NCBI GenBank assembly: GCA_963719945.1
Contig: CAVRDX010000001.1
Span: 480,001-544,000, forward strand
Source of the DNA: an uncultured Thermoplasmata archaeon
GTDB lineage: Archaea > Thermoplasmatota > Thermoplasmata > UBA10834
Length of the DNA: 64,000 nt
Direction: 5' to 3'
Both the position numbers and the translations under genes were made by a program. Below are positions 26,430-48,510 of this stretch, piece after piece; position 1 is the first letter of the stretch, and every line of letters begins with the position of its first letter. The notes beneath the pieces were generated by a model that was not told the origin of the DNA, did no database searches, and worked only from the letters and a program-made list of their open reading frames with translations.

Positions 26430-27395
26430 ATGGCCTTACTAGAAGTCCAAGGGCTAAGGACTTATTTCAAAACGCAAGAAGGAACGCTGAAAGCAGTCGA
26501 TGGTATCGATTTCAACCTGGACAAGGGTCAGGCAATGGGTCTGGCCGGAGAATCAGGTTGTGGAAAAACCACCGCGGCTCTGTCCATCATGAAGCTTCTG
26601 CCAGCAAACGGATATATCGCTGGCGGAAAGATCAATTTCATGGGCCAGGACATGGCAAGGGTCACGGGCGACAAGCTCCGTGCAATCCGGTGGAGGGATA
26701 TTTCCATCATTTTCCAGGGTGCGATGAACGCTCTCAATCCGGTCAAGCGTGTCGGCGAACAGATTGTCGAGCCCATCGTTCTACATGAGAAGGTGGATCA
26801 AGAAGTCGCATTGAAGCGTGTCAAGGAACTCTTCGAGATGGTGGGTATCAACCCGAACAGGATACGGGAATATCCGCATGAGTTCAGCGGCGGTATGCGG
26901 CAGAGGGTCATGATCGCAATGGCTCTTGCATGTAAGCCAAGACTCGTGATCGCAGATGAGCCAACGACCGCACTTGATGTTATGATACAGGCTCAGATCA
27001 TAGCACTTCTGAAGAGCCTTCAGAGGGATCTCGACCTGGCTATGATTGTCATTTCTCACGACTTGTCTGTCCTAGCCGAGACCTGCGACCTCTTGGCAAT
27101 CATGTACGCAGGGAAGATTGTCGAGAAGGCTCCTGCGGAGCAGGTCTTCTATGATCCACAGCATCCATACACCAGGGGACTGATTGCAGCTTTCCCCAAC
27201 ATTCACGGTGAGAAGAAGATGCCTGCATCGATCGCGGGTAACCCACCGAACCTGATCAACCCAACAATCGGCTGCAGGTTCTATGACAGGTGCTTCATGA
27301 AGCAGGACGCCTGTAAGACAAAAGAGCCTCCACTCGTAGAGGTAAAGCCCGGGCACTGGGCTGCATGTCATTTCGTGCCACCGATGAAGGGGTGA
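26430..27395 (+). CDS. oligopeptide/dipeptide ABC transporter ATPase (OppD-like)
   Basis: [31 protein letters not shown]-terminal Cys cluster. Confidence 0.92.
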
Positions 27396-27401
27396 TCTGA
27401 G

Positions 27402-28502
27402 ATGGTCAAGGATATTCTGGTTGTCAAAGACTTGCAGGTTTGGTTCCCCGTAAGACAGGGATTCGTCGAGAGTCTAGTCTCAAAGGAGCAGAGGTTTGTG
27501 AAGGCAGTGGATGGCGTCTCATTCAACATCAAGGAGAGGGAGATATTCTGCCTCGTTGGTGAATCCGGATGCGGCAAGACCACCACTGGAAAAGGTATTC
27601 TGAGACTCGTCGAACCGACTGGTGGCAGCGTCAAGTATTACGGCAAAGGCAAGGAGATCCTCCTCAAGGATATGATATCTGAGGCGCTTGCAAAGAAGAA
27701 GATCACGAAGGCGCAGGCTGACAAGATGACGGCTGACAGCGGAATTGATGTCCGTGCTCTCCATAAGGGCAAGATGAAGAAACTCCGCCAGAAGATGCAG
27801 ATCATCTTCCAGGACCCGTATGAATCGCTCAATCCGAAGCAGTCGATTTATGACATAATCGCCGAACCGTTGGTCGTCAACGGGATAGGCTCGACTGAGG
27901 CTGAGAGAGAGAAGAGGGTCATAAAGGCACTCGAGGATGCAGGTCTCAGACCGCCGAAGGACTACATGTGGAGATATCCGCACGAGGTATCTGGAGGTCA
28001 GAGACAGAGGGTAGGCATTGCAGGGTCCCTCGTGCTCGAGCCAGAGTTCCTGGTTGCCGATGAACCGGTCTCTATGCTCGATGTTTCGATCAGGTCCGAG
28101 ATCCTGAAGCTCATGCTCGACCTGAGAGACAACAGAGGTCTCGCATTCCTGTTCATAACGCACGATCTTGGTGTGGCATATGTGTTCAGTGACAGGATCG
28201 GCATCATGTACTTGGGCAAGATCGTGGAGCTTGGGCCAACGGAAGAGGTCGTCAAGAACCCGAAGCACCCGTACACGAAGGCACTGATATCGGTCGTTCC
28301 GACCCCGGATCCTGAGCGGAGGAGAGACAAGATCATCCTCAAGGGCGAGAGACCAGATCCATCGCACATACCTCCAGGATGCAGGTTCCACCCGAGATGC
28401 CCGTTCGTAATGGACATCTGCCGGAAGGAAGCTCCCGCGTCGGTATTCGTATCAGAAGGCCACTGGGTCGCGTGTCACCTCGAGAAGGGGAAGCCCCTAT
28501 AG
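27402..28502 (+). CDS. oligopeptide/dipeptide ABC transporter ATPase (OppF-like)
   Basis: [39 protein letters not shown]. Confidence 0.92.
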
Positions 28503-28659: not shown

Positions 28660-29868
28660 ATGAAGGCCAATAAATCAGATACATTCAATAACGTCAAACG
28701 AGCGGTCCCCAAATCGGAGATAGAATCATTGGTCAAGGACCTGGTGAGGATACCTAGCCATAGTCAGGTACCTACTCGCGAGAAAGAGGTCGCAGAGTTC
28801 CTGCACGAGTTCTTGACAGATGAGGGAATCGATTCCAAGCTCAGAAAGGTCGAGAAGGACCGATATAATGTCATAGCGACGCTCAAGGGGTCAGGAACGG
28901 GAAGCAGTCTAATGCTCAATGGGCATCTGGACACAGTCCCTCCGTATGACATGGACATCCCGCCGTTCACGCCAAAGGTTCAGGGAGGGAAGTTGTACGG
29001 ACGCGGCGCCCTCGATATGAAGGGTGGCTTGGGTGCGATGGCAGCGACCATATTGGCACTGGACCGTGCGAAGATAGGCCTGAAAGGCAATGTCTATCTC
29101 ACGGCGGTCGTGGGCGAAGAGGAACGAAGCGAAGGGACCGAGGATATCGTCATCAGAGGCCCCAAGGCAGACATGGCCATAGTGGGGGAACCTACAGACC
29201 TGGAGATTCAACCGTCCCACAGAGGCCTGGAATGGCTCGAGGTGCACTTCTACGGAAAGGCGGCACATGGTGGACAGGCGGCCCAGGGCGTGAATGCGAT
29301 ATCGATGGCCGCGAGGTTCGTCAATCTACTGGATACTGAACTGTTGCCACGTATTCGCGAGCGGAAGAGTGCTCACACGGACCCGCCAACGCTGAATATT
29401 GGCGTGATTCAGGGGGGTCAGCAACCCAGTTCAGTCGCTGATCATTGCGTGGTGAAGATCGATAGACGATGGACTCCAGAGGAGGACCTCCAACAGGTCT
29501 TCAAGGAGATATACAAGTTGTTCGACGAGCTGAAACGCGATGACCCTCATTTCAAGGCGGAGCTCAAGCGAGACTCGACGAACATGAAGACGATGACGCA
29601 TGTGCCAAACGTCGTCCCAACCGATCATAGGTTGGTCAAATCCCTCAGTGAATCCGTGAAGACGGTCACGGGCAAACCAGCAAAGATGACAAGTTTCTGG
29701 GGATGGACGGATGCGGCTCTCCTGACACATTTCGGAAAGACCCCTGCGGTCATATTCGGTCCTGGAGGGAAAGGCGCACACTCGAGAGTGGAATATGTTC
29801 TCGTCGACGATCTGCAGAAGTGCATGCACGTGTACGCCAAGACCGCCATGGACATGTGTGGCGAGTGA
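28660..29868 (+). CDS. M20 family deacylase (ArgE/DapE-like)
   Basis: NGHLDTVP, GRGALDMKGG, GEE, GEPT, G..AH. Confidence 0.88.
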   Translation: MKANKSDTFNNVKRAVPKSEIESLVKDLVRIPSHSQVPTREKEVAEFLHEFLTDEGIDSKLRKVEKDRYNVIATLKGSGTGSSLMLNGHLDTVPPYDMDIPPFTPKVQGGKLYGRGALDMKGGLGAMAATILALDRAKIGLKGNVYLTAVVGEEERSEGTEDIVIRGPKADMAIVGEPTDLEIQPSHRGLEWLEVHFYGKAAHGGQAAQGVNAISMAARFVNLLDTELLPRIRERKSAHTDPPTLNIGVIQGGQQPSSVADHCVVKIDRRWTPEEDLQQVFKEIYKLFDELKRDDPHFKAELKRDSTNMKTMTHVPNVVPTDHRLVKSLSESVKTVTGKPAKMTSFWGWTDAALLTHFGKTPAVIFGPGGKGAHSRVEYVLVDDLQKCMHVYAKTAMDMCGE

Positions 29869-31482: not shown

Positions 31483-31608
31483 TAGAAGCCTCCAAGGATC
31501 TCTCTCGAGGGGGAGAGTATCTCCATATTCTATGTCATTTTGGGCTGATTATTTAACATTATGTCGCGCTGACAAGGATTATATCGTATCTGCACATTAA
31601 TCGAAGCG

Positions 31609-32469
31609 ATGAAGTACGAGTTCCGTTTTGAGAAATATCAGGGCTGTGGGAATGATTTCATCCTTAAGGATGAGATGGATGATGACAGAATTCCTGATGA
31701 TCACAGAAGCGAGATGGCAAAGTTCCTTTGGGATAGGCATTTCTGGGTAGGCGCGGATGGAGTCCTATTCGTCGAGAAAGCTCCTGGAGTCGACGGATCG
31801 ATGCGCCTCTTCGAGCCTGCCGGGAACGAGGCCGATATGTGTGGGAACGGACTCAGATGCGTGGCCGCTTTCCTGATGGAGAAGCTTGGCAAGAATACGG
31901 TAGACGTCCTCACGAAGGATGGAGTCAAGCATGTCGAACGCACGCCAGAGGGAATCAGGGTGGATATGGGATTGGTGAGGACCCTCCGGAAGGACTTGGA
32001 TCAGTATATCACAGATAAAGGCGGACCTGAAGACTCCATGATGTCTATCGCCCTGTCCATCGGGGATTCCACTGTAACGGCATCGCTGATCAATACTGGC
32101 GAGCCGCATATGATAATCTTCACCGACGACATAGATGCGGTCCCAATGGTGAATATCGGGACACATGTCAATAAAGACAGAGCACGATTCCCAAAGGGGA
32201 TGAACATCAACTATGTCCAGATCACGGGGCCTCATGACATAAGCGTGAGGACTTACGAACGAGGAGTCTACAACGAGAGCATGGCCTGTGGCACGGGATC
32301 GACGGCATGTGCAGCGGCCTCACTGATGCTAGATAAGATACAGCCTGGAGCCGTCAACGTCAAGACTCTAGGCGGCATGCTCGTCATAGAAGTAGATGAA
32401 AATGCGAGAGCGGTCATGACCGGTCCCGCAGAGAAAGCGTTTGAAGGGAAACTGACGGTCGAGGTATGA
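31609..32469 (+). CDS. DapF-fold epimerase/racemase with an altered distal substrate pocket
   Basis: GNDF, catalytic MCGNG and ACGTG, YERG; but RLFEP and GEPH where DapF normally has RIFN and GNPH. Confidence 0.85.
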   Translation: MKYEFRFEKYQGCGNDFILKDEMDDDRIPDDHRSEMAKFLWDRHFWVGADGVLFVEKAPGVDGSMRLFEPAGNEADMCGNGLRCVAAFLMEKLGKNTVDVLTKDGVKHVERTPEGIRVDMGLVRTLRKDLDQYITDKGGPEDSMMSIALSIGDSTVTASLINTGEPHMIIFTDDIDAVPMVNIGTHVNKDRARFPKGMNINYVQITGPHDISVRTYERGVYNESMACGTGSTACAAASLMLDKIQPGAVNVKTLGGMLVIEVDENARAVMTGPAEKAFEGKLTVEV

Positions 32470-32504: not shown

Positions 32505-33881
32505 TCACTTCGCGGACTTCATCTTCTTGAGGACTTCCTCTGCAGCCTTGAGCGTGTTATCTATGTCCTTATCGGTATGCTCAGTGCATGTATAGAACGG
32601 CTTGTCCGGATGGAAGTGCATGCCCCGTGCCAGCAGACCGTAATCGAACTGCTTCCGCGCGGTTTCATCCATCTTGAGGGTATGCCTGTAATCGCGGATA
32701 TCGTCCAGCTTCTGGCCCTCCTTCCCGAACAGAACATTGAACGTCGATCCCGGACCCAGGGCTTTCGCATTGAATCCAAGCCTCTGGAACAGGTCGTTCA
32801 ATCCATCCTGGAACTTGTCCGTGATCCTCATGAGGTATGGATAGGTCTCTGGCTGCTCCAGTATATCCATTGTCGCCATGCCTGCGGCCAATACCGTCGG
32901 GTGTCCGTTGAATGTACCTCCATGGAAGACTCGATTGTCCTTTGCGCGGGTGACAGGGTTCACGACATCCATTATCTCCTCTTGTCCCAGGAACGCGCCA
33001 CACGGGAATCCGCCGCCGATGATCTTTCCGAGGCACATCAAGTCCGGAGTTATCCCGACCATGGTCTGTGCCCCACCGAGCTTATCCATCCTGAACCCGG
33101 ACATTACCTCGTCGAATATGAGGATGATATCGAGCTCCGTGGTGGTCTCCCTGACGGCCTTCAGGAACTCAGGTTCCCCTTCGATGAAGCCACGCTGTAC
33201 GGGCTCCATGATAACCGCTGCCAGGTCGTTCTTGTGGGCTTTCAGGAGCCGAATCGTGTCGTGGATATCGTTGAATGGGAGCACCTGCGTGCTCTGAAGC
33301 GTGTATTCTGATGTCCCCAGGGAACATGCGACGGCCTGAGGCGCGGCTTCGGGCCCTGCGACCTCTTCGCTCGGGGTCAGGCTCACTAGAGCCTCATCGT
33401 AGCATCCATGATAATGCCCCTCGAACTTAGCAATCCTGTTCCTCTTTTTGTATCCCCTAGAAACTCTAAGGGCGTGGAGCGTCGCCTCAAGTCCTGAATT
33501 GGTGAAGCGAACATATTCCGCGCATGGGAATATCTTTTCCAGACGCTGAGCCATCTTTGCTTCCATCTCGTGTGGAGCGCCGAATATCGCAGTTCCATCA
33601 GTGTCCAGCTGCTTCTTGATGGCCTCATGGACCTTTGGATGTCCGTGGCCGAGGATCATGGGCCCGAAGCATAGCATGTAGTCGATGTATTCGTTCCCGT
33701 CCAGGTCCCATATGTGGGATCCCTTGGCCTTGTTTGCATAGACAGGGTATGGCGGGTAGTACTTGACGTTCCCCGTCACGCCTCCTGGCAGGTACTCCTT
33801 CGCGAATTCGAACCATTTGGCGCTCTTCTGCGTTTTAGCCTTGTATTCAGCCACCGCGTCGTATGGTGTCATTTCAATCAC
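32505..33881 (-). CDS. class III PLP aminotransferase (GSAM-like; candidate beta-aminoacyl-CoA transaminase)
   Basis: DLDGNEYID, RFTNSG.EA, FEGHYHG, IFDEVMSGFR, GKIIGGG, GTFNGHP. Confidence 0.88.
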   Translation of the reverse strand: MIEMTPYDAVAEYKAKTQKSAKWFEFAKEYLPGGVTGNVKYYPPYPVYANKAKGSHIWDLDGNEYIDYMLCFGPMILGHGHPKVHEAIKKQLDTDGTAIFGAPHEMEAKMAQRLEKIFPCAEYVRFTNSGLEATLHALRVSRGYKKRNRIAKFEGHYHGCYDEALVSLTPSEEVAGPEAAPQAVACSLGTSEYTLQSTQVLPFNDIHDTIRLLKAHKNDLAAVIMEPVQRGFIEGEPEFLKAVRETTTELDIILIFDEVMSGFRMDKLGGAQTMVGITPDLMCLGKIIGGGFPCGAFLGQEEIMDVVNPVTRAKDNRVFHGGTFNGHPTVLAAGMATMDILEQPETYPYLMRITDKFQDGLNDLFQRLGFNAKALGPGSTFNVLFGKEGQKLDDIRDYRHTLKMDETARKQFDYGLLARGMHFHPDKPFYTCTEHTDKDIDNTLKAAEEVLKKMKSAK

Positions 33882-34645
33882 CCGAGGTATATCTTCTCTG
33901 GATCGAGCGCTCTGAGCGTGGAGATCTCCTTCTCGGTCGGTGGAGGGGTATTCTCCAGCTTAGGCGAGACCTTCAGATCCCATGGAGTGTTCTCCTTTAC
34001 CTTCTCCACAGTAGCTCCTGGGTGCAGGGACACCAGAGTCATCTCTCCAGTGACCTCATCGAACTTCATCGTGCCCAGGTTTGTTACGACGGCATATGGG
34101 CCGCCGCCCTGAAGCCCGAGCTTCTTCCAGGCTTCTTTTCCGTCCATGAATCCAGGACTGGTCTTGAAATCGACCTTCTCCACGAATCTGCGCTTCTCAT
34201 GTGGAGTTATCACTATGATCTTCTTGACGTTCGAGGCAATGTCACAAGCGCCACCGCTTCCAGGCAGTCTTACCTTAGGCGTCTTGTACTTGCCGATTAT
34301 CGTGGAGTTGATGTTGCCATATTTGTCGATCTGCGCCCCTCCGAGGAATCCAACATCAATCCTGCCGCCTTGAAGATAGTATGCGAACTGTTCGTACATC
34401 GAGCATACACTCTTCGCGCCGGTGACGAGGCATGGGTCCCCTATGGACAAAGGCATCCTGCTAGGGTTGGAACCGACTGCTCCGGACTCGTATACCATGT
34501 TGAGTCCGGGTGCCTGCAACTTCTTCGCGAGGTTGGCTGCCAGGTTGGGTATTCCCACACCGACCAGGACAGATTCTCCGTCCTTGAGTTCCCTCGCAGC
34601 GACTATGACCATCAGCTCACTTGGTGAAACTTCTGTCATCTTCAT
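33878..34645 (-). CDS. family I CoA-transferase beta subunit (GctB-like)
   Basis: VGVGIP, YESG (catalytic Glu), FLGGAQIDKYGNINST, LPGSGGA. Confidence 0.9.
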   Translation of the reverse strand: MKMTEVSPSELMVIVAARELKDGESVLVGVGIPNLAANLAKKLQAPGLNMVYESGAVGSNPSRMPLSIGDPCLVTGAKSVCSMYEQFAYYLQGGRIDVGFLGGAQIDKYGNINSTIIGKYKTPKVRLPGSGGACDIASNVKKIIVITPHEKRRFVEKVDFKTSPGFMDGKEAWKKLGLQGGGPYAVVTNLGTMKFDEVTGEMTLVSLHPGATVEKVKENTPWDLKVSPKLENTPPPTEKEISTLRALDPEKIYLG

Positions 34646-34652
34646 GACCTCC

Positions 34653-35570
34653 TCATACACTCCCATAATTCACAGGGGCACTGTAAGCTGCCTTCGGAAG
34701 GAGCTTCAATACCTTCTCTGACGAGAGCTTCTTCATGTATGCCGCACGGTCCTCCACTCCATATACCCACTCATCGAGGTACTTCATGGTCGTCTCGTGC
34801 TCCTTCGTTACATCATCCCATTGCATGTAGAACTCGTTATCCCTGTCGTAATATCCCTGGGTATAGGAGGGATGCGCACACCATGGCTCGCAGACCACCG
34901 CATGAGAGATGAAATCAGGTATCAAGGTCCTGTTCGGATCGGACCGGATGACCGACTCATCAACTATCTCCTCACAGCTTATGATGACCTTCTTGGCAGC
35001 GAACGCTGCATCCTTCTGTTCGCCAGTTATGCCCCAGATGTGACAGTTGCCCATAGCATCTGCCCTCTGGACATGCACGACGGCGACATCAGGGTTCAAG
35101 GGTGGCACGATGGATACCTCCTCGCCAGTGTACGGGTTGTTGATGGTCTTCATCAACGGGTTCTCTGGTGGCAGGTCCGAGCCGAGATTGGTCCTCATCG
35201 GGAGGAACGGCATCTTGGTGGCTCCCGCAAACAATCTTCCCGAGAGCCCGAAATGTGTGTACTCCTCAATCTCGATTGGATTTGGAACGCCCTTCTCAAG
35301 AGCCCTTCTGAAGCATCTTAGAGAGCCAACGCCAGGGTTCCCAGCGTAGCTGAACATCATCTTCTTGGCGCAGCCAGCTGCGATCATCTGGTCATAGATG
35401 ATGTCCGGCGTAGCTCTGCACAAGGTGAGGTCTTTGCGCTTCTGCCTGATGATCTCATGTCCTGCAGCGAACGGGATCATGTGAGTGAATCCCGCCAGGT
35501 ACACGGTGTCCCCGTCCTTGACGAACTTTGACACCGCTTCCTTCATTGTCATCGATTTCGTCGAATCCAT
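34653..35570 (-). CDS. family I CoA-transferase alpha subunit (GctA-like)
   Basis: EAVSKFVKDGD, GFTH.IPFA, PDVAVVHVQRAD..GN, AHPS....YYDRD. Confidence 0.9.
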   Translation of the reverse strand: MDSTKSMTMKEAVSKFVKDGDTVYLAGFTHMIPFAAGHEIIRQKRKDLTLCRATPDIIYDQMIAAGCAKKMMFSYAGNPGVGSLRCFRRALEKGVPNPIEIEEYTHFGLSGRLFAGATKMPFLPMRTNLGSDLPPENPLMKTINNPYTGEEVSIVPPLNPDVAVVHVQRADAMGNCHIWGITGEQKDAAFAAKKVIISCEEIVDESVIRSDPNRTLIPDFISHAVVCEPWCAHPSYTQGYYDRDNEFYMQWDDVTKEHETTMKYLDEWVYGVEDRAAYMKKLSSEKVLKLLPKAAYSAPVNYGSV

Positions 35571-35571
35571 A

Positions 35572-35997
35572 TCAGTTCCCCTCCAAATCGGGTGTGAACT
35601 TGAAACCATATCGGATTACGCCTTCTTCGACATAGACCTTCTTCAACTCCGCTTTGACGGGCATATCGAACTTGACCTCTTTCGGGTTGACATCGCTCAT
35701 CTGGCCTATGACCTTGGGGCCTTCCTCTAGCTCAACGATGGCGACAGGATATGACCCGCCGGACCTCATCTGTTCAGCGAACTCCGGAGGAGCGCCACCA
35801 GCGCCGATCAGAACGAAGGTGTGTATCTTGCCCTTTCCGCTGAGTTGGATTTCATCGAACTCGGACGAGGCGTTGCAGTACTTGCACACACCCTTCGGGG
35901 GGAAGTTGACGGCCCCGCACTTCTTGCACTTCTGGCCGACCATCTTGTATCTCTGGGGTATTGTCCTCCAATACATCGGGACTGAAACATGTGCCAT
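35572..35997 (-). CDS. DUF35 Zn-ribbon/OB-fold thiolase partner
   Basis: WR..PQRY...G.KCKKCG...FPP...CKYC, IRYGFKF. Confidence 0.92.
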   Translation of the reverse strand: MAHVSVPMYWRTIPQRYKMVGQKCKKCGAVNFPPKGVCKYCNASSEFDEIQLSGKGKIHTFVLIGAGGAPPEFAEQMRSGGSYPVAIVELEEGPKVIGQMSDVNPKEVKFDMPVKAELKKVYVEEGVIRYGFKFTPDLEGN

Positions 35998-36008
35998 ATC
36001 TGTTCACC

Positions 36009-37025
36009 TCACTTTAGGGCTCCCTTGAGTTTGAGGTATTGGATGTAATCGATGTACTCCTTCTTCTCAAGCTGAGCCTTCAGACTCGGATTTGCTTTCC
36101 TCTCGCCTACCACTTTGAAGCTCATTGCATCGCTACCGGCGCCAGAGCCATAGGAGACTACCATGATCCTGTCACCGACTTTTGCAGATTCGAGCGCGGA
36201 CACCAATCCAACCGGAGTCGACGCCGCTCCCAGGTCTCCCATTGTAGCGGAAACCATGCTGGATGCGAGCTTCGCAGGATCGATTGTCAGTTTTCCAGCG
36301 ACTGATGCCGGGGCCTTCGCATCAGCCTGATGAATAACCACATGGGCATAATCCTCGGGTTTGGAGCCAAGCTTCTTCATCAGCGAAGAGCAGGCCTTTG
36401 TCGTTGTGGAAACAAATGCAGATGCTGAGAACTTCTTTACACCCAAATCTTGGATCATGTCCTCGTTGGATGGTCTGAAGCGCTCACCGAAATGCTCCAT
36501 GGCATAGGATGCAGAACCCTCGAATTCCGCCATCAGGTTCTCCGAAGACAGAACGAAACCAGCAGCACCTGCGCCGAGGCCATGCTCCGTCGAATCCCAC
36601 ATGCTCGCCTTTGGCGCGTCACAAGCAGCAACGACCGCTACACCACTCGGATTCGCCTTGAGATGCTCGAAGGCAGATATCAACGCCTCCGTCCCTGCGC
36701 GCGTTGAGGAAGTATGGTCGCTGCAGAATGCAGAGTTCGGCATGCCGACATTTACGATAACTGTGCCAGACAACATCTTCTCTAGGTACGGTGCGGATGT
36801 CGATGCGAATGCGAACCTCGACACCTTATCTGCCGTCATCGGTACGGATGCCAGGGCACTTTTCGAGACCTTCGCAGCGGCTGTGAGGACGTCCTCATCA
36901 AAGCTCATCACCGACTTCTCGGCCACTCCTGGCGCCTGGAATGATCCCCATACCTTTGCATAATCTTCCTTCTTGATCCTGAGCCGTGGGACATATACCC
37001 CATATCCAGATATTCCAACTGCCAT
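36009..37025 (-). CDS. HMG-CoA synthase-like protein lacking the catalytic Cys/Glu (scaffold, PhlA-like)
   Basis: GYGVYVPRLRI, DEDVLT, SYGSGAGSDA fold motifs; ASTSAPY instead of GSES.PY and DHTSSTRAG instead of FACKAG. Confidence 0.8.
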   Translation of the reverse strand: MAVGISGYGVYVPRLRIKKEDYAKVWGSFQAPGVAEKSVMSFDEDVLTAAAKVSKSALASVPMTADKVSRFAFASTSAPYLEKMLSGTVIVNVGMPNSAFCSDHTSSTRAGTEALISAFEHLKANPSGVAVVAACDAPKASMWDSTEHGLGAGAAGFVLSSENLMAEFEGSASYAMEHFGERFRPSNEDMIQDLGVKKFSASAFVSTTTKACSSLMKKLGSKPEDYAHVVIHQADAKAPASVAGKLTIDPAKLASSMVSATMGDLGAASTPVGLVSALESAKVGDRIMVVSYGSGAGSDAMSFKVVGERKANPSLKAQLEKKEYIDYIQYLKLKGALK

Positions 37026-37031
37026 CCAGAA

Positions 37032-38198
37032 TCACCTCTCCATAATAGACACGGAAACTGTGCCGCCGGACCCACCGACATTATGTATGAGCCCTCTCTC
37101 AGCGTTCTTGACCTGACGGACGGGTTTGTTGACCTGTCCACGCAGCTGGTTGAACATCTCATATGCCTGACCGGTCCCGGTGGAGCCGATCGGGTGCCCC
37201 TTGGATTTGAGTCCTCCGCTCGGGTTGATGGGCATATCCCCTCCAATCTGAGTATGCCCCTCCTCGATGAACTGACCTGCCTTCCCCTTCTCGCAGAATC
37301 CGAGATCCTCGGTTGCTAGAAGTTCGGCAATAGTGAAGCAGTCATGGACTTCAGCCAAGTTCATGTCCTTCGCTGTCCTGCCTGCCATCTTATATGCCTG
37401 ATCAGCAGCCCTTCTGCTGCCCTCGAGCGTGACTGTCCTTACCCTGTCATGTATTGCTAGGTAGTCACTCGATGTGCCGAAACCGGTGACATATATCGGA
37501 GTGTCCGTGAACTGCTTAGCGATCTCAGCATCGCATACCAGGACCGATGATGCGCCATCCGTAGTCGAGCAACAGTCGAACAGATTCAGAGGATATGCTA
37601 CGATCGGGGCCTTCATGGCCTGTTCCAAGGTAATCTCTCGTTGGAATTGAGCCTTGGGGTTCTGAGCCCCGTTCTTGTGGTTCTTCAATGCCACCATTGA
37701 TAGATGCTCCCTCTTGGTGCCGAACTCATGCATATGCCTGTGGGCTATGAGCGCGTAAAGACCCGCAAATGTAGTTCCAGCGAGCCTCTCGTATTCAGTG
37801 TCTCCAGACACGCCAAGCCAATACTTCTGCTTCATTCCAGAAACATCGGTCATCTTCTCGACGCCACCTGCTATGACCATCTTGTGGGCGCCTGAAAGAA
37901 CATCCATTATCGCGGCAACCAATGCATAACCACCGGATCCGCATGCGTTTTCAATCCTTACAGTGTGTATGTAGGGCAGTCCCGCGTACTCTGCGACAAG
38001 TGCCGACATGTTACCCAGCTGGAATCCACCGGACCCAAGGTTGCCAATGTATGCACCTTCGATCAGCTTCGGGTCGTAATTCTTGTCCACACTCGAAGCC
38101 ATGTCCTTGTACGCTTCAAAGAACAGTTCCTTTATTCCCTTCTCGGGAAATTCGCCGTACTTGCTCTGCCCTGCTCCGACAATCGCTACTTTCCTCAT
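37032..38198 (-). CDS. archaeal/SCP2-type thiolase
   Basis: ENACGSG, EVHDCFTIAE, NPSGGLKSKGHPIG.TG, HNVGGSG. Confidence 0.92.
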   Translation of the reverse strand: MRKVAIVGAGQSKYGEFPEKGIKELFFEAYKDMASSVDKNYDPKLIEGAYIGNLGSGGFQLGNMSALVAEYAGLPYIHTVRIENACGSGGYALVAAIMDVLSGAHKMVIAGGVEKMTDVSGMKQKYWLGVSGDTEYERLAGTTFAGLYALIAHRHMHEFGTKREHLSMVALKNHKNGAQNPKAQFQREITLEQAMKAPIVAYPLNLFDCCSTTDGASSVLVCDAEIAKQFTDTPIYVTGFGTSSDYLAIHDRVRTVTLEGSRRAADQAYKMAGRTAKDMNLAEVHDCFTIAELLATEDLGFCEKGKAGQFIEEGHTQIGGDMPINPSGGLKSKGHPIGSTGTGQAYEMFNQLRGQVNKPVRQVKNAERGLIHNVGGSGGTVSVSIMER

Positions 38199-38396
38199 AT
38201 TAGGTCCCTCGCATCGCTCGCCACAACCTGCCACACGCACGAAGTCGTGCGACGGTCGTCAGCAGCCATTCTGCGAGTCTGGTATGGCAATTTTTCGAAA
38301 CACGAATCCGCCTATATAACCATTGGTGATTAACACACATCTCTGGACCGTTTTAGACAGCGTATTACGAATCCGTGTTATCGGTCACGGTCATTT

Positions 38397-38420
38397 GTTC
38401 CCTTTTTCGTAGTTTATAAA
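38397..38420 (+). promoter_or_regulatory. candidate Lrp-type operator GTTCCCTTTTTCGTAG abutting the kamA TATA box TTTATAAA
   Basis: 13/16 match to GTTCCTATTTTCGTAC upstream of the Lrp gene at 48384-48399. Confidence 0.5.
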
Positions 38421-38513
38421 CGACAGTTCGTAACAAGTTCGACGATAGCCTGAGCAGATGATAAATACGCAGTCTAATATTTAGTCAATCGAACATCTGA
38501 TGAGGTATTGCGC

Positions 38514-39785
38514 ATGAGGTCTTACAAGGATATTGCTCTGTGGAAAGACGTCACACCCGAAGAATGGAATGATTGGAAGTGGCAACTGAGAAACAGGATC
38601 ACGAGCGTAGACCAACTGAAGCAAGTAATCAACCTCACGCCTGAGGAAGAGGCTGGTGTCCGTGATTCGCTTAGGATTCTGAGAATGGCAATCACGCCAT
38701 TCTACGCGACCCTCATGGACCCTAACGACCCCCATTGTCCGGTTAGGATGCAGGCGGTCCCGACAGCCAAGGAGATCGATTTCAGCGAGGATGACATGGA
38801 GGACCCTCTCTTCGAGGACATAGACTCACCAGTCCACGGATTGACTCACAGATATCCAGATAAGGTACTCTTCCTGATAACCGATCAATGCGGCATGTAC
38901 TGCAGGCACTGCACTCGGAGGAGGCTCGCAGGTCAGACGGACACTGAAAGGGATTCTAATACAATCGATGCCGTCATAAAATACATCGAAGAGCACGAAG
39001 AGATACGCGATGTGTTGCTTTCCGGCGGTGACCCACTCACCGTGTCCGACAAGGTCTTGGAAAACATCATATCACGGTTGCAGGCGATCGACCATGTCGA
39101 GATTGTTAGACTGGGAAGCAGGACACCATGCGTCCTGCCTCAGAGAATAACACCTGAGCTATGCGATATGCTGAAGAAGCATCACCCCATCTGGCTCAAC
39201 ACGCATTTCAACCACCCAAAGGAGATAACCCCTGAAGCGAAAGCTGCTGTCGAGAGACTTGCGGACGCAGGTATTCCCGTCGGAAACCAGAGCGTTCTTC
39301 TCAAGGGCATAAACGATTGTCCAACGATAATGAAGAAACTCGTCCACGAACTTGTGAAGATGAGGTGCAGGCCATACTACTATTACCAATGTGATATGTC
39401 CCGAGGAATCGAACACTTTAGGACCTCTGTCGCCAAGGGTGTGGAGATCCAGGAGGCCTTGAGAGGACACACATCAGGATATGCCGTCCCATTGTTCATT
39501 GTCGATGCTCCTGGAGGCGGAGGGAAGATCCCGCTCAGTCCGAATTACTTCGTGAGCATGTCCGACAAGCGCATAGTGCTCAGGAACTATGAGGGCGGTA
39601 CTTTCCAGTACCCAGAGCCAAAGGACCGTGTCAGCACATGTCCACCTACCTGCAAGATGTGCAAGGATTACAGCAACATTGAGAGCAAGGAAGGTGTCGC
39701 GGGTGTTCTATCTGGAAATAAATTCGCGCTGATACCAGAAGGGAACGCAAGGGCCGAGAGACGCAAGCATTACGACAAACACTGA
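38514..39785 (+). CDS. kamA: lysine 2,3-aminomutase (radical SAM, PLP)
   Basis: WNDWKWQ, HRYPD, CGMYCRHC, LLSGGDPL, YQCD and VDAPGGGGK (both Lys-binding Asp plus PLP Lys), C-terminal Zn Cys. Confidence 0.93.
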   Translation: MRSYKDIALWKDVTPEEWNDWKWQLRNRITSVDQLKQVINLTPEEEAGVRDSLRILRMAITPFYATLMDPNDPHCPVRMQAVPTAKEIDFSEDDMEDPLFEDIDSPVHGLTHRYPDKVLFLITDQCGMYCRHCTRRRLAGQTDTERDSNTIDAVIKYIEEHEEIRDVLLSGGDPLTVSDKVLENIISRLQAIDHVEIVRLGSRTPCVLPQRITPELCDMLKKHHPIWLNTHFNHPKEITPEAKAAVERLADAGIPVGNQSVLLKGINDCPTIMKKLVHELVKMRCRPYYYYQCDMSRGIEHFRTSVAKGVEIQEALRGHTSGYAVPLFIVDAPGGGGKIPLSPNYFVSMSDKRIVLRNYEGGTFQYPEPKDRVSTCPPTCKMCKDYSNIESKEGVAGVLSGNKFALIPEGNARAERRKHYDKH

Positions 39786-48366: not shown

Positions 48367-48510
48367 GAATCCGGGTATACGTCGTTCCTATTTTCGTACC
48401 TTTCGATGAAAAACATGCAAAAACGTCGTTTATGCCGGGTTCGCACCCCGGCAGACGCCCCCTAGAGTACACATATGATCCCTAGGGGTGTGTCTTGAAT
48501 AGGGTTTACT

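Follow-up and report, generated by a model that had tools for sequence, protein, structure and literature searches.

An acidic-pocket subfamily of DapF-fold proteins in Thermoplasmata and a possible cofactor-independent racemase outside lysine biosynthesis

Introduction

What does a protein do that has the fold and the catalytic cysteines of diaminopimelate (DAP) epimerase, DapF, and carries two glutamates among the residues with which DapF holds the far end of DAP? This question is raised by a gene in a 64,000-nucleotide stretch of DNA from an uncultured Thermoplasmata archaeon, the whole of which is called the window here. A sequence-only reading had taken the gene product for a possible racemase of lysine or another diamino acid, and the computational analysis reported here followed up this reading.

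In the DapF of H. influenzae, the distal carboxylate of DAP is hydrogen-bonded by N64, N157 and N190 and forms a salt bridge with R209, the distal amine is bound by E208 and Q44, and the reacting centre is held by N11, G74, N75, G218 and S219 (PMC8225329). The 1.5-Å structures of the Anabaena enzyme show the same pattern for N66, N164, N197, R216 and E215 (PMC12039745). E. coli grows normally when its dapF is deleted (bioRxiv 10.1101/2024.10.14.618325). The substrates given in reviews for the DapF fold are DAP, histidine, proline, hydroxyproline, O-ureidoserine, isoleucine and 2,4-diaminobutyrate (Dab), and a PLP-free racemase of lysine, ornithine or arginine is named as still undiscovered (PMC8225329, PMC11602996, PMC12039745). 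The lysine racemases in the literature that we searched were PLP-dependent ones only.

Results

An intact DapF-fold protein with two glutamates in the distal site

The gene is an uninterrupted open reading frame (ORF) and appears to be monocistronic (Table 1). Its product consists of two DAP_epimerase domains (Pfam PF01678 twice, E 8e-48), with no PLP-binding alanine-racemase-type domain among its Pfam matches. Proteins of this family are labelled below by their residues at the distal-site positions 69 and 165 of the window protein (E/E, N/N or N/V). An AlphaFold model made from 24 E/E sequences reached a pLDDT of 92.6 and a pTM of 0.91, and its top matches in the PDB are DapFs, ligand-bound ones included, with TM scores of 0.86-0.89. 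When the PDB was searched with the window protein sequence, DcsC (7vdy) was matched at E 1.5e-24, below all true DapFs, and HisR and CntK gave no match at E <= 0.01; the search revealed orthology to none of the three.

Table 1. Positions of the DapF-like gene, its key residues and its neighbours in the window
Feature	Position	Strand	Basis
Opp/Dpp-type peptide ABC transporter ATPases, oppD and oppF	26430..28502	+	
M20 ArgE/DapE-family deacylase	28660..29868	+	TIGR01910, 283 bits against a cut-off of 218; Pfam M20
D-aminoacylase (N-acyl-D-amino-acid deacylase) homologue, 536 aa	29872..31482	-	PDB 1m7j, E 2e-84; 3gip, E 2e-78
Divergent intergenic region between the DapF-like and D-aminoacylase genes, 126 bp	31483..31608	.	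sequence
Two-cysteine racemase/epimerase gene, DapF-fold, E/E acidic-pocket subfamily, 286 aa	31609..32469	+	Pfam, TIGR00652, AlphaFold
RLFEP, Glu69 codon GAG, replacing a distal-site Asn (H. influenzae N64, Anabaena N66)	31813..31815	+	HMMER alignment
Catalytic Cys78 (C73 equivalent), MCGNG	31840..31842	+	alignment
GEPH, Glu165 codon GAG, replacing a distal-site Asn (N157 / N164)	32101..32103	+	HMMER alignment
Distal-site residues kept: Asn199 (N190), Glu217 (E208), Arg218 (R209)	32203..32262	+	alignment; roles from PMC8225329, PMC12039745
Catalytic Cys227 (C217 equivalent), ACGTG	32287..32289	+	alignment
Convergent six-gene operon: class-III aminotransferase, CoA-transferase B, CoA-transferase A, DUF35, HMGCS-like, thiolase	32505..38240	-	
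kamA, lysine 2,3-aminomutase (KamA/AblA)	38508..39785	+	TIGR03820, 601 bits against a cut-off of 525

The letters of the ORF bore out what the sequence-only reading had said of the motifs: the catalytic MCGNG (Cys78) and ACGTG (Cys227) are both intact, and RLFEP and GEPH stand where RIFN and GNPH are usual. The protein retains N15, C78, G79, N80, H167, N199, E217, R218, C227, G228 and T229, among them every residue of the reacting centre (C78, C227, N15, G79, N80, G228 and T229). Ten of the 13 ligand-contact positions are retained, the changed ones being the two Asn-to-Glu positions and that of Q44, which is Gly in the window protein and likewise in most N/N and N/V representatives. The sequence thus holds all elements of a two-base cofactor-free mechanism, together with a far-end site that has gained two carboxylates.

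The claimed equivalence of Glu69 and Glu165 to N64 and N157 also held, since HMMER alignments to 9mro (Anabaena), 5ha4 and 8qzy match them to the Asn residues of RIFN and GNPH. Their spacing to the catalytic cysteines and to Arg218/Asn199 is that of N66/N164/N197/R216 in Anabaena and of N64/N157/N190/R209 in H. influenzae. Of the four distal-carboxylate ligands of DapF, the window protein therefore has two changed to Glu (N64 to Glu69, N157 to Glu165) and the other two, N190 and R209, kept. With Arg218 and Asn199 in place, there is still positive charge in the distal site, which counts against a cationic substrate.

In Anabaena DapF, a loop Glu forms a salt bridge with the distal Arg; the corresponding residue of the window protein is Asp76, and among the representatives this position is Asp in 18 of 26 E/E proteins and Glu in 45 of 60 N/N proteins. 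Under strict thresholds applied to family-wide representatives, only positions 69 and 165 cleanly split the E/E from the canonical proteins, with Asp76, Cys13 and Ser/Asp at the Q44 position as weaker E/E trends. N157 is V or S in some lysA-linked DapFs and N64 is Q in some methanogen DapFs, so these positions are not strictly needed for DAP epimerisation by bona fide enzymes; a LysA-DapF fusion (P0164) is of the N/V type, which indicates that N157 itself is dispensable for true DapFs. Judged from the sequences, the marker of the clade is the acidic pair and not the loss of N157. The DapFs of Methanomicrobiales (L051-L054, L060 and L061) carry Q/V at the two distal positions; as these are presumably genuine DAP epimerases, N157 is not conserved in such enzymes.

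The acidic pair marks a clade

In a search of 1.84 billion representatives, identity to the window protein drops sharply from 57% in its own clade to 38-42%. The best 150 representatives and the query together comprise 26 E/E, 60 N/N and 44 N/V proteins and a few mixed ones, and Glu69 and Glu165 are invariant across all 26 E/E representatives. Both glutamates also occur in 119 of the 120 closest database homologues, in all 25 orthologues read from related genomes by alignment, and in 59 of 70 metagenome loci that had been chosen solely by E at the first position. This recurrence shows that the pair is not a chance variant. The pattern of the metagenome scan for E/E-type loci was E..DG.E..MCGNG; in a scan of genome contigs, the patterns drawn from the E/E alignment were ones that all DapFs share, and only one of the 80 loci was E/E.

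Two trees were built after removal of the two trait columns (positions 69 and 165). The acidic-pocket proteins formed one group in both, namely 35 of 151 rows with an SH-like value of 94 in FastTree and 37 of 65 rows with an SH-aLRT of 94 in IQ-TREE (inner branch, 97), and the lysA-linked N/N proteins of Thermoplasmata grouped with bacteria in the canonical clade (99). Members of the E/E type are known from Thermoplasmata, Nanohaloarchaea, Woesearchaeota and Caldisericota. The window protein scores 226 bits with TIGR00652, the DapF equivalog model of NCBIfam, against a cut-off of 114.65, so this model fails to separate the E/E clade. A subgroup of the acidic clade (L139, L145, L148, L154, L176 and L184) combines E at position 69 with V at 165 and has N199 replaced by Cys and R218 by Ser; its whole distal site is rebuilt, and its genes adjoin GT2, ThiF and DUF6754 genes.

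The lysine/DAP pathway is not found in the host or its family

The host genome, a Thermoplasmata MAG, comprises four contigs with a total of 1.78 Mb, and the DapF-like gene is its sole DAP_epimerase gene. The earlier observation that no dap genes lie near this gene proved correct and extends to the whole genome, since lysA, dapA, dapB and lysW were not found in the assembly, which is 87% complete. The window gene, accordingly, was not seen to work within a DAP/lysine pathway as a DapF does. In a comparison sample of 251 genomes of the class Thermoplasmata, an E/E orthologue (51-91% identity) was present in 24 of the 30 genomes of the host family (f1), and lysA was above the cut-off in none of these 30, one of which is a single-contig genome of 98% completeness. 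In contrast, a methanogen-like family of Thermoplasmata has DapFs of 32-40% identity a few tens of bases from lysA, and the four of them that were read by alignment all have N at both positions. Set against the N/N or N/V DapFs that are linked to lysA, this pattern, which holds across the family and the phylum, is strong evidence that the protein no longer takes part in lysine biosynthesis; the biosynthetic role of DapF has very probably been lost in it.

Caldisericota repeat the split independently

Caldisericota are an independent replicate of the split between lysA-linked and E/E genes. An N/V DapF is found in 13 of their genomes and lies within about 6 kb of lysA in all 13, whereas the E/E gene is never near lysA in this phylum; three genomes carry both types. 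The E/E orthologue is present in 22 of 81 Caldisericota genomes, and its presence is uncorrelated with that of lysA, which occurs in 10 of the 22 genomes with the orthologue and in 23 of the 59 without it.

One result from this phylum counts against our best reading: five genomes with lysA have no DAP_epimerase-family gene other than the E/E gene, and Ddh was not found in them. Ddh was found in none of the Caldisericota genomes checked, and with the DapL model TIGR03542 the only matches were aminotransferases below the threshold. However, 13 further lysA-positive genomes had no DapF-family match to the protein query at E <= 1e-10, which makes it probable that Caldisericota use an unrecognised epimerase. 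These data suggest an unrecognised DAP epimerase or a pathway variant in Caldisericota, and DAP epimerase activity of the E/E proteins is unlikely. The lysA-positive genomes with neither a DapF-family match nor Ddh include G277, G279, G300, G305, G311, G314, G318-G320, G326 and G330.

The gene lies between peptide uptake and lysine breakdown

The gene order in the window is MFS, MBL, oppD, oppF, M20, D-aminoacylase (-) and the DapF-like gene (+), followed by the six-gene operon (all -), kamA (+) and SAM synthetase. In family f1, the DapF-like gene thus stands between a peptide-uptake/deacylase cluster and the kamA lysine-breakdown operon. The sequence-only reading had placed it beside a D-aminoacylase and the kamA locus. 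The first of these adjoins it divergently and has its ligands intact, with HxH, the Cys of NCG and the equivalents of His220, His250 and Asp366 all aligned; one of its PDB matches, 3gip, is an N-acyl-D-Glu deacylase. The second is indeed in the neighbourhood but not adjacent, being 6 kb away behind the six-gene operon.

A TTATAT 30 nt 5' of the ATG of the DapF-like gene is a possible TATA box of a leaderless transcript. The 15-bp motif GTTCCYWTTTTCGTA occurs exactly at the kamA promoter (38397-38411) and 5' of a gene near 48.4 kb (48384-48398), with nine matches at up to three mismatches against 2.85 expected; it is absent from the DapF-like/D-aminoacylase intergenic region, and the nearest match (two mismatches) lies inside the aminotransferase gene.

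Sixteen genomes from four genera share the gene order of the window exactly; common ancestry within one family may be the sole cause of this 17-kb synteny. The DapF-like gene is cleanly missing from four genomes of genus g3, while the D-aminoacylase gene, the kamA operon and all other neighbours are kept; the loci (L203-L206, in G144, G172, G030 and G137) have 180-260 bp between the D-aminoacylase and aminotransferase genes, with no DapF-like remnant at E <= 1e-3. This clean loss marks the DapF-like function as accessory and counts against our best explanation. A Peptidase_S58 gene (DmpA/BapA, D-/beta-aminopeptidase family) stands between oppF and M20 in genera g2-g4 and in one g1 genome (for example L036:5362-6453 in G040), and the window is without it, with oppF ending at 28502 and M20 starting at 28660. 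In relatives, second kamA paralogues (65-67% identity) and D-aminoacylase paralogues (about 40%) lie about 50 kb apart (G144:C1:1239788-1292006; G137:C1:1622430-1675880; G078:C34:168777-229226).

Outside the family, D-aminoacylase homologues (35-47% identity) stand beside metagenome E/E genes in arrangements other than that of the window: co-directional upstream (L131, L181), co-directional downstream (L156, L160) and convergent (L196). Together with the divergent order of the window, a D-aminoacylase gene is next to an E/E gene in at least four arrangements, spread over two deep subclades. Class-III aminotransferases of another subfamily are encoded near the E/E genes of L181, L196, L166, L149 and L153. 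One E/E protein (P0126) is fused to a DUF917/S-Me-THD-like domain, and in L166 the E/E gene is followed by a DUF917/S-Me-THD-like gene, a gene of the Asp/Glu/hydantoin-racemase family and a D-aminoacylase gene; in this locus (L166:4310-8805), both the E/E and the D-aminoacylase genes appear split, through a frameshift or an assembly error. Further contexts include a Liv-type amino-acid transporter, an aspartate-dehydrogenase/MFS pair and, on Caldisericota-like contigs, a murA-like cell-envelope cluster. The E/E contexts in other lineages are not lysine-specific, which counts against lysine as the substrate.

Discussion

Our best explanation, to which we give a probability of about 0.5, is that the protein is a PLP-independent two-cysteine racemase for an amino acid with a cationic or NH-donor side chain, working outside lysine/DAP synthesis. 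In such an enzyme, the two glutamates would repel the distal carboxylate of a DAP-type substrate, and their longer side chains could fill the place of that carboxylate and pair with the kept Arg218 and Asn199, so supplying in cis the carboxylate that the substrate is missing. Glu217 and the new glutamates might then bind the ammonium or NH-donor end of a side chain of roughly the length of lysine.

Lysine is the simplest fit because it is DAP minus the distal carboxylate, and it also fits the KamA pathway, the ArgE/DapE-type deacylase, the omega-amine aminotransferase partners and the lysine activity of T. maritima DapF; as the specific substrate, it is nevertheless only a tentative choice. 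Ornithine, arginine or a ureido or amide analogue could take its place, and the retention of Arg218/Asn199 means that a neutral NH-donor side chain (ureido, amide or guanidino) fits as well. A plausible route would begin with uptake by Opp, continue with the release of a D-amino acid by the D-aminoacylase and the M20 deacylase, and end with its conversion to the L-form by the DapF-like protein; with D-lysine, the product would be L-lysine, the substrate of the nearby KamA pathway. Beta-lysine, also put forward by the sequence-only reading, is chemically unlikely: the two-cysteine mechanism takes the proton alpha to the carboxylate and the stereocentre of beta-lysine is not alpha to it, from which we infer that this candidate should be rejected.

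In the strongest rival reading, the protein racemises or epimerises a non-cationic compound that the neighbouring hydrolases set free. This might be a neutral, polar D-amino acid, an amino acid that is N-acylated or bound in a peptide, or a hydantoin-type ring-opening product, and the Glu pair would act as hydrogen-bond acceptors or shape the pocket. The breadth of substrates already handled by the fold (His, Pro, Hyp, O-ureidoserine, Ile and Dab) agrees with this idea, as do the differing contexts of E/E genes among lineages and, in particular, their fusion or adjacency to DUF917/S-Me-THD-like genes near a hydantoin-racemase-family gene; the kept Arg218 would go well with a distal group that has an anionic or acceptor atom. 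We consider it rather unlikely all the same, because two new carboxylates together with Glu217 make a strongly acidic site that a cation matches best, class-III (omega-amine) aminotransferases and an ArgE/DapE-type deacylase recur as partners, and the nearest catabolic pathway in family f1 is that of lysine.

That the protein is still a DAP epimerase, which salvages meso-/LL-DAP from bacterial wall peptides or remains biosynthetic in some lineages and tolerates or protonates the glutamates, is improbable. Its score above the TIGR00652 equivalog cut-off, true DapFs as its closest sequence and structure matches, the retained Arg218, Asn199 and Glu217, and the five lysA-bearing Caldisericota genomes in which neither Ddh nor any family member but the E/E gene was found all speak for this function, and the DapE-like M20 protein and the D-aminoacylase could free DAP from muropeptides. 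In the host, however, DAP would have no onward route without lysA, dapA, dapB and lysW, and none of the 30 f1 genomes has lysA above the cut-off. Two carboxylates at a carboxylate site should repel DAP, and E/E genes are never lysA-linked while N/N and N/V genes are. The coexistence of both types in three Caldisericota genomes, and the 13 lysA-positive ones without a DapF-family match (E <= 1e-10), where an unrecognised epimerase is probable, argue the same way. A histidine racemase like HisR or CntK, with Glu hydrogen-bonding the imidazole ring, is very improbable: HisR is likewise annotated as DapF in an organism without a DAP pathway, and both enzymes are proposed to bind imidazole through Glu residues, but these lie at other positions, E69/E165 sit at the far end of a DAP-length pocket, neither enzyme is among the PDB sequence matches (E <= 0.01), which places the protein much closer to true DapFs, and no staphylopine-type or histidine-related neighbour genes were seen.

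A racemase for basic D-amino acids, as preferred here, can be set against the known systems. With DapF (EC 5.1.1.7; PF01678, TIGR00652; 9mro, 2gke, 3ejx), the window protein shares the two-domain pseudosymmetric fold and the Cys pair, the cradle for the alpha-carboxylate and alpha-amine (N15, G79, N80, G228 and T229), and His167, Glu217, Arg218 and Asn199, with 36% identity to the Anabaena enzyme. It differs in the distal pair (Asn to Glu), in the loop (Glu to Asp) and in belonging to a separate clade, and its gene has no lysA/dap linkage and its host no DAP pathway. Like the repurposed DapFs, it combines the fold and the Cys pair with a re-tooled side-chain site and a context outside DAP synthesis.

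Closest in concept is PddB, a PLP-independent, DapF-derived 2,4-diaminobutyrate racemase that does not accept LL- or meso-DAP (PMC8225329). As proposed here for the window protein, it acts on a diamino acid without a distal carboxylate and has distal-site Asn replaced; however, N64, N157 and N190 are all replaced in PddB, R209 is Val and there is an N-terminal extension, whereas the window protein keeps N190 and R209, a distinction that follows the published description of PddB. PddB, which resembles DapF only weakly, is strictly Dab-specific, with Lys, Orn and Arg inert, and functions in the biosynthesis of actinobacterial secondary metabolites (PMC8225329). HisR and CntK (PMC11602996) resemble the window protein in being annotated as DapF without a DAP pathway in the organism and in using acidic residues to bind a basic side chain, but they are far more distant in sequence, have these residues elsewhere and occur in other contexts (staphylopine synthesis; a V-ATPase neighbourhood).

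That the scaffold can racemise lysine is indicated by T. maritima DapF, for which a weak lysine racemase side activity is reported (Miyamoto 2019, as cited in PMC9790342); going by that citation, this enzyme differs in being a genuine lysine-pathway DapF whose lysine activity is minor. The dedicated lysine racemase of T. maritima is PLP-dependent. The PLP-dependent lysine and broad-spectrum racemases (Lyr, and Alr of P. putida; PMC3485190, PMC6034422) catalyse the same proposed reaction in a catabolic role for D-/L-Lys and Arg, but they have the alanine-racemase fold and PLP chemistry and are unrelated to the window protein. If the window protein racemises lysine, it would be a non-homologous isofunctional enzyme of EC 5.1.1.5. 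Racemisation of a basic D-amino acid is probably an activity not yet described for the DapF fold. That the E/E clade as a whole is the first cofactor-independent family of lysine or basic amino acid racemases, widespread in Thermoplasmata, DPANN archaea and Caldisericota, is a doubtful extension.

The two-residue Asn-to-Glu switch would be a simple and testable determinant of specificity, and a PLP-free racemase of lysine, ornithine or arginine would, if real, be of biocatalytic interest. If our explanation is right, hundreds of archaeal entries called diaminopimelate epimerase, in organisms without peptidoglycan or a DAP pathway, would be misannotated, and the failure of TIGR00652 to set the E/E proteins apart would distort reconstructions of lysine biosynthesis. 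It would also suggest a concrete, testable way for the abundant heterotrophic archaea of sediments to use the D-amino acids of aged organic matter and bacterial walls, linking the scavenging of D-amino-acid detritus by D-aminoacylase to KamA-initiated lysine fermentation.
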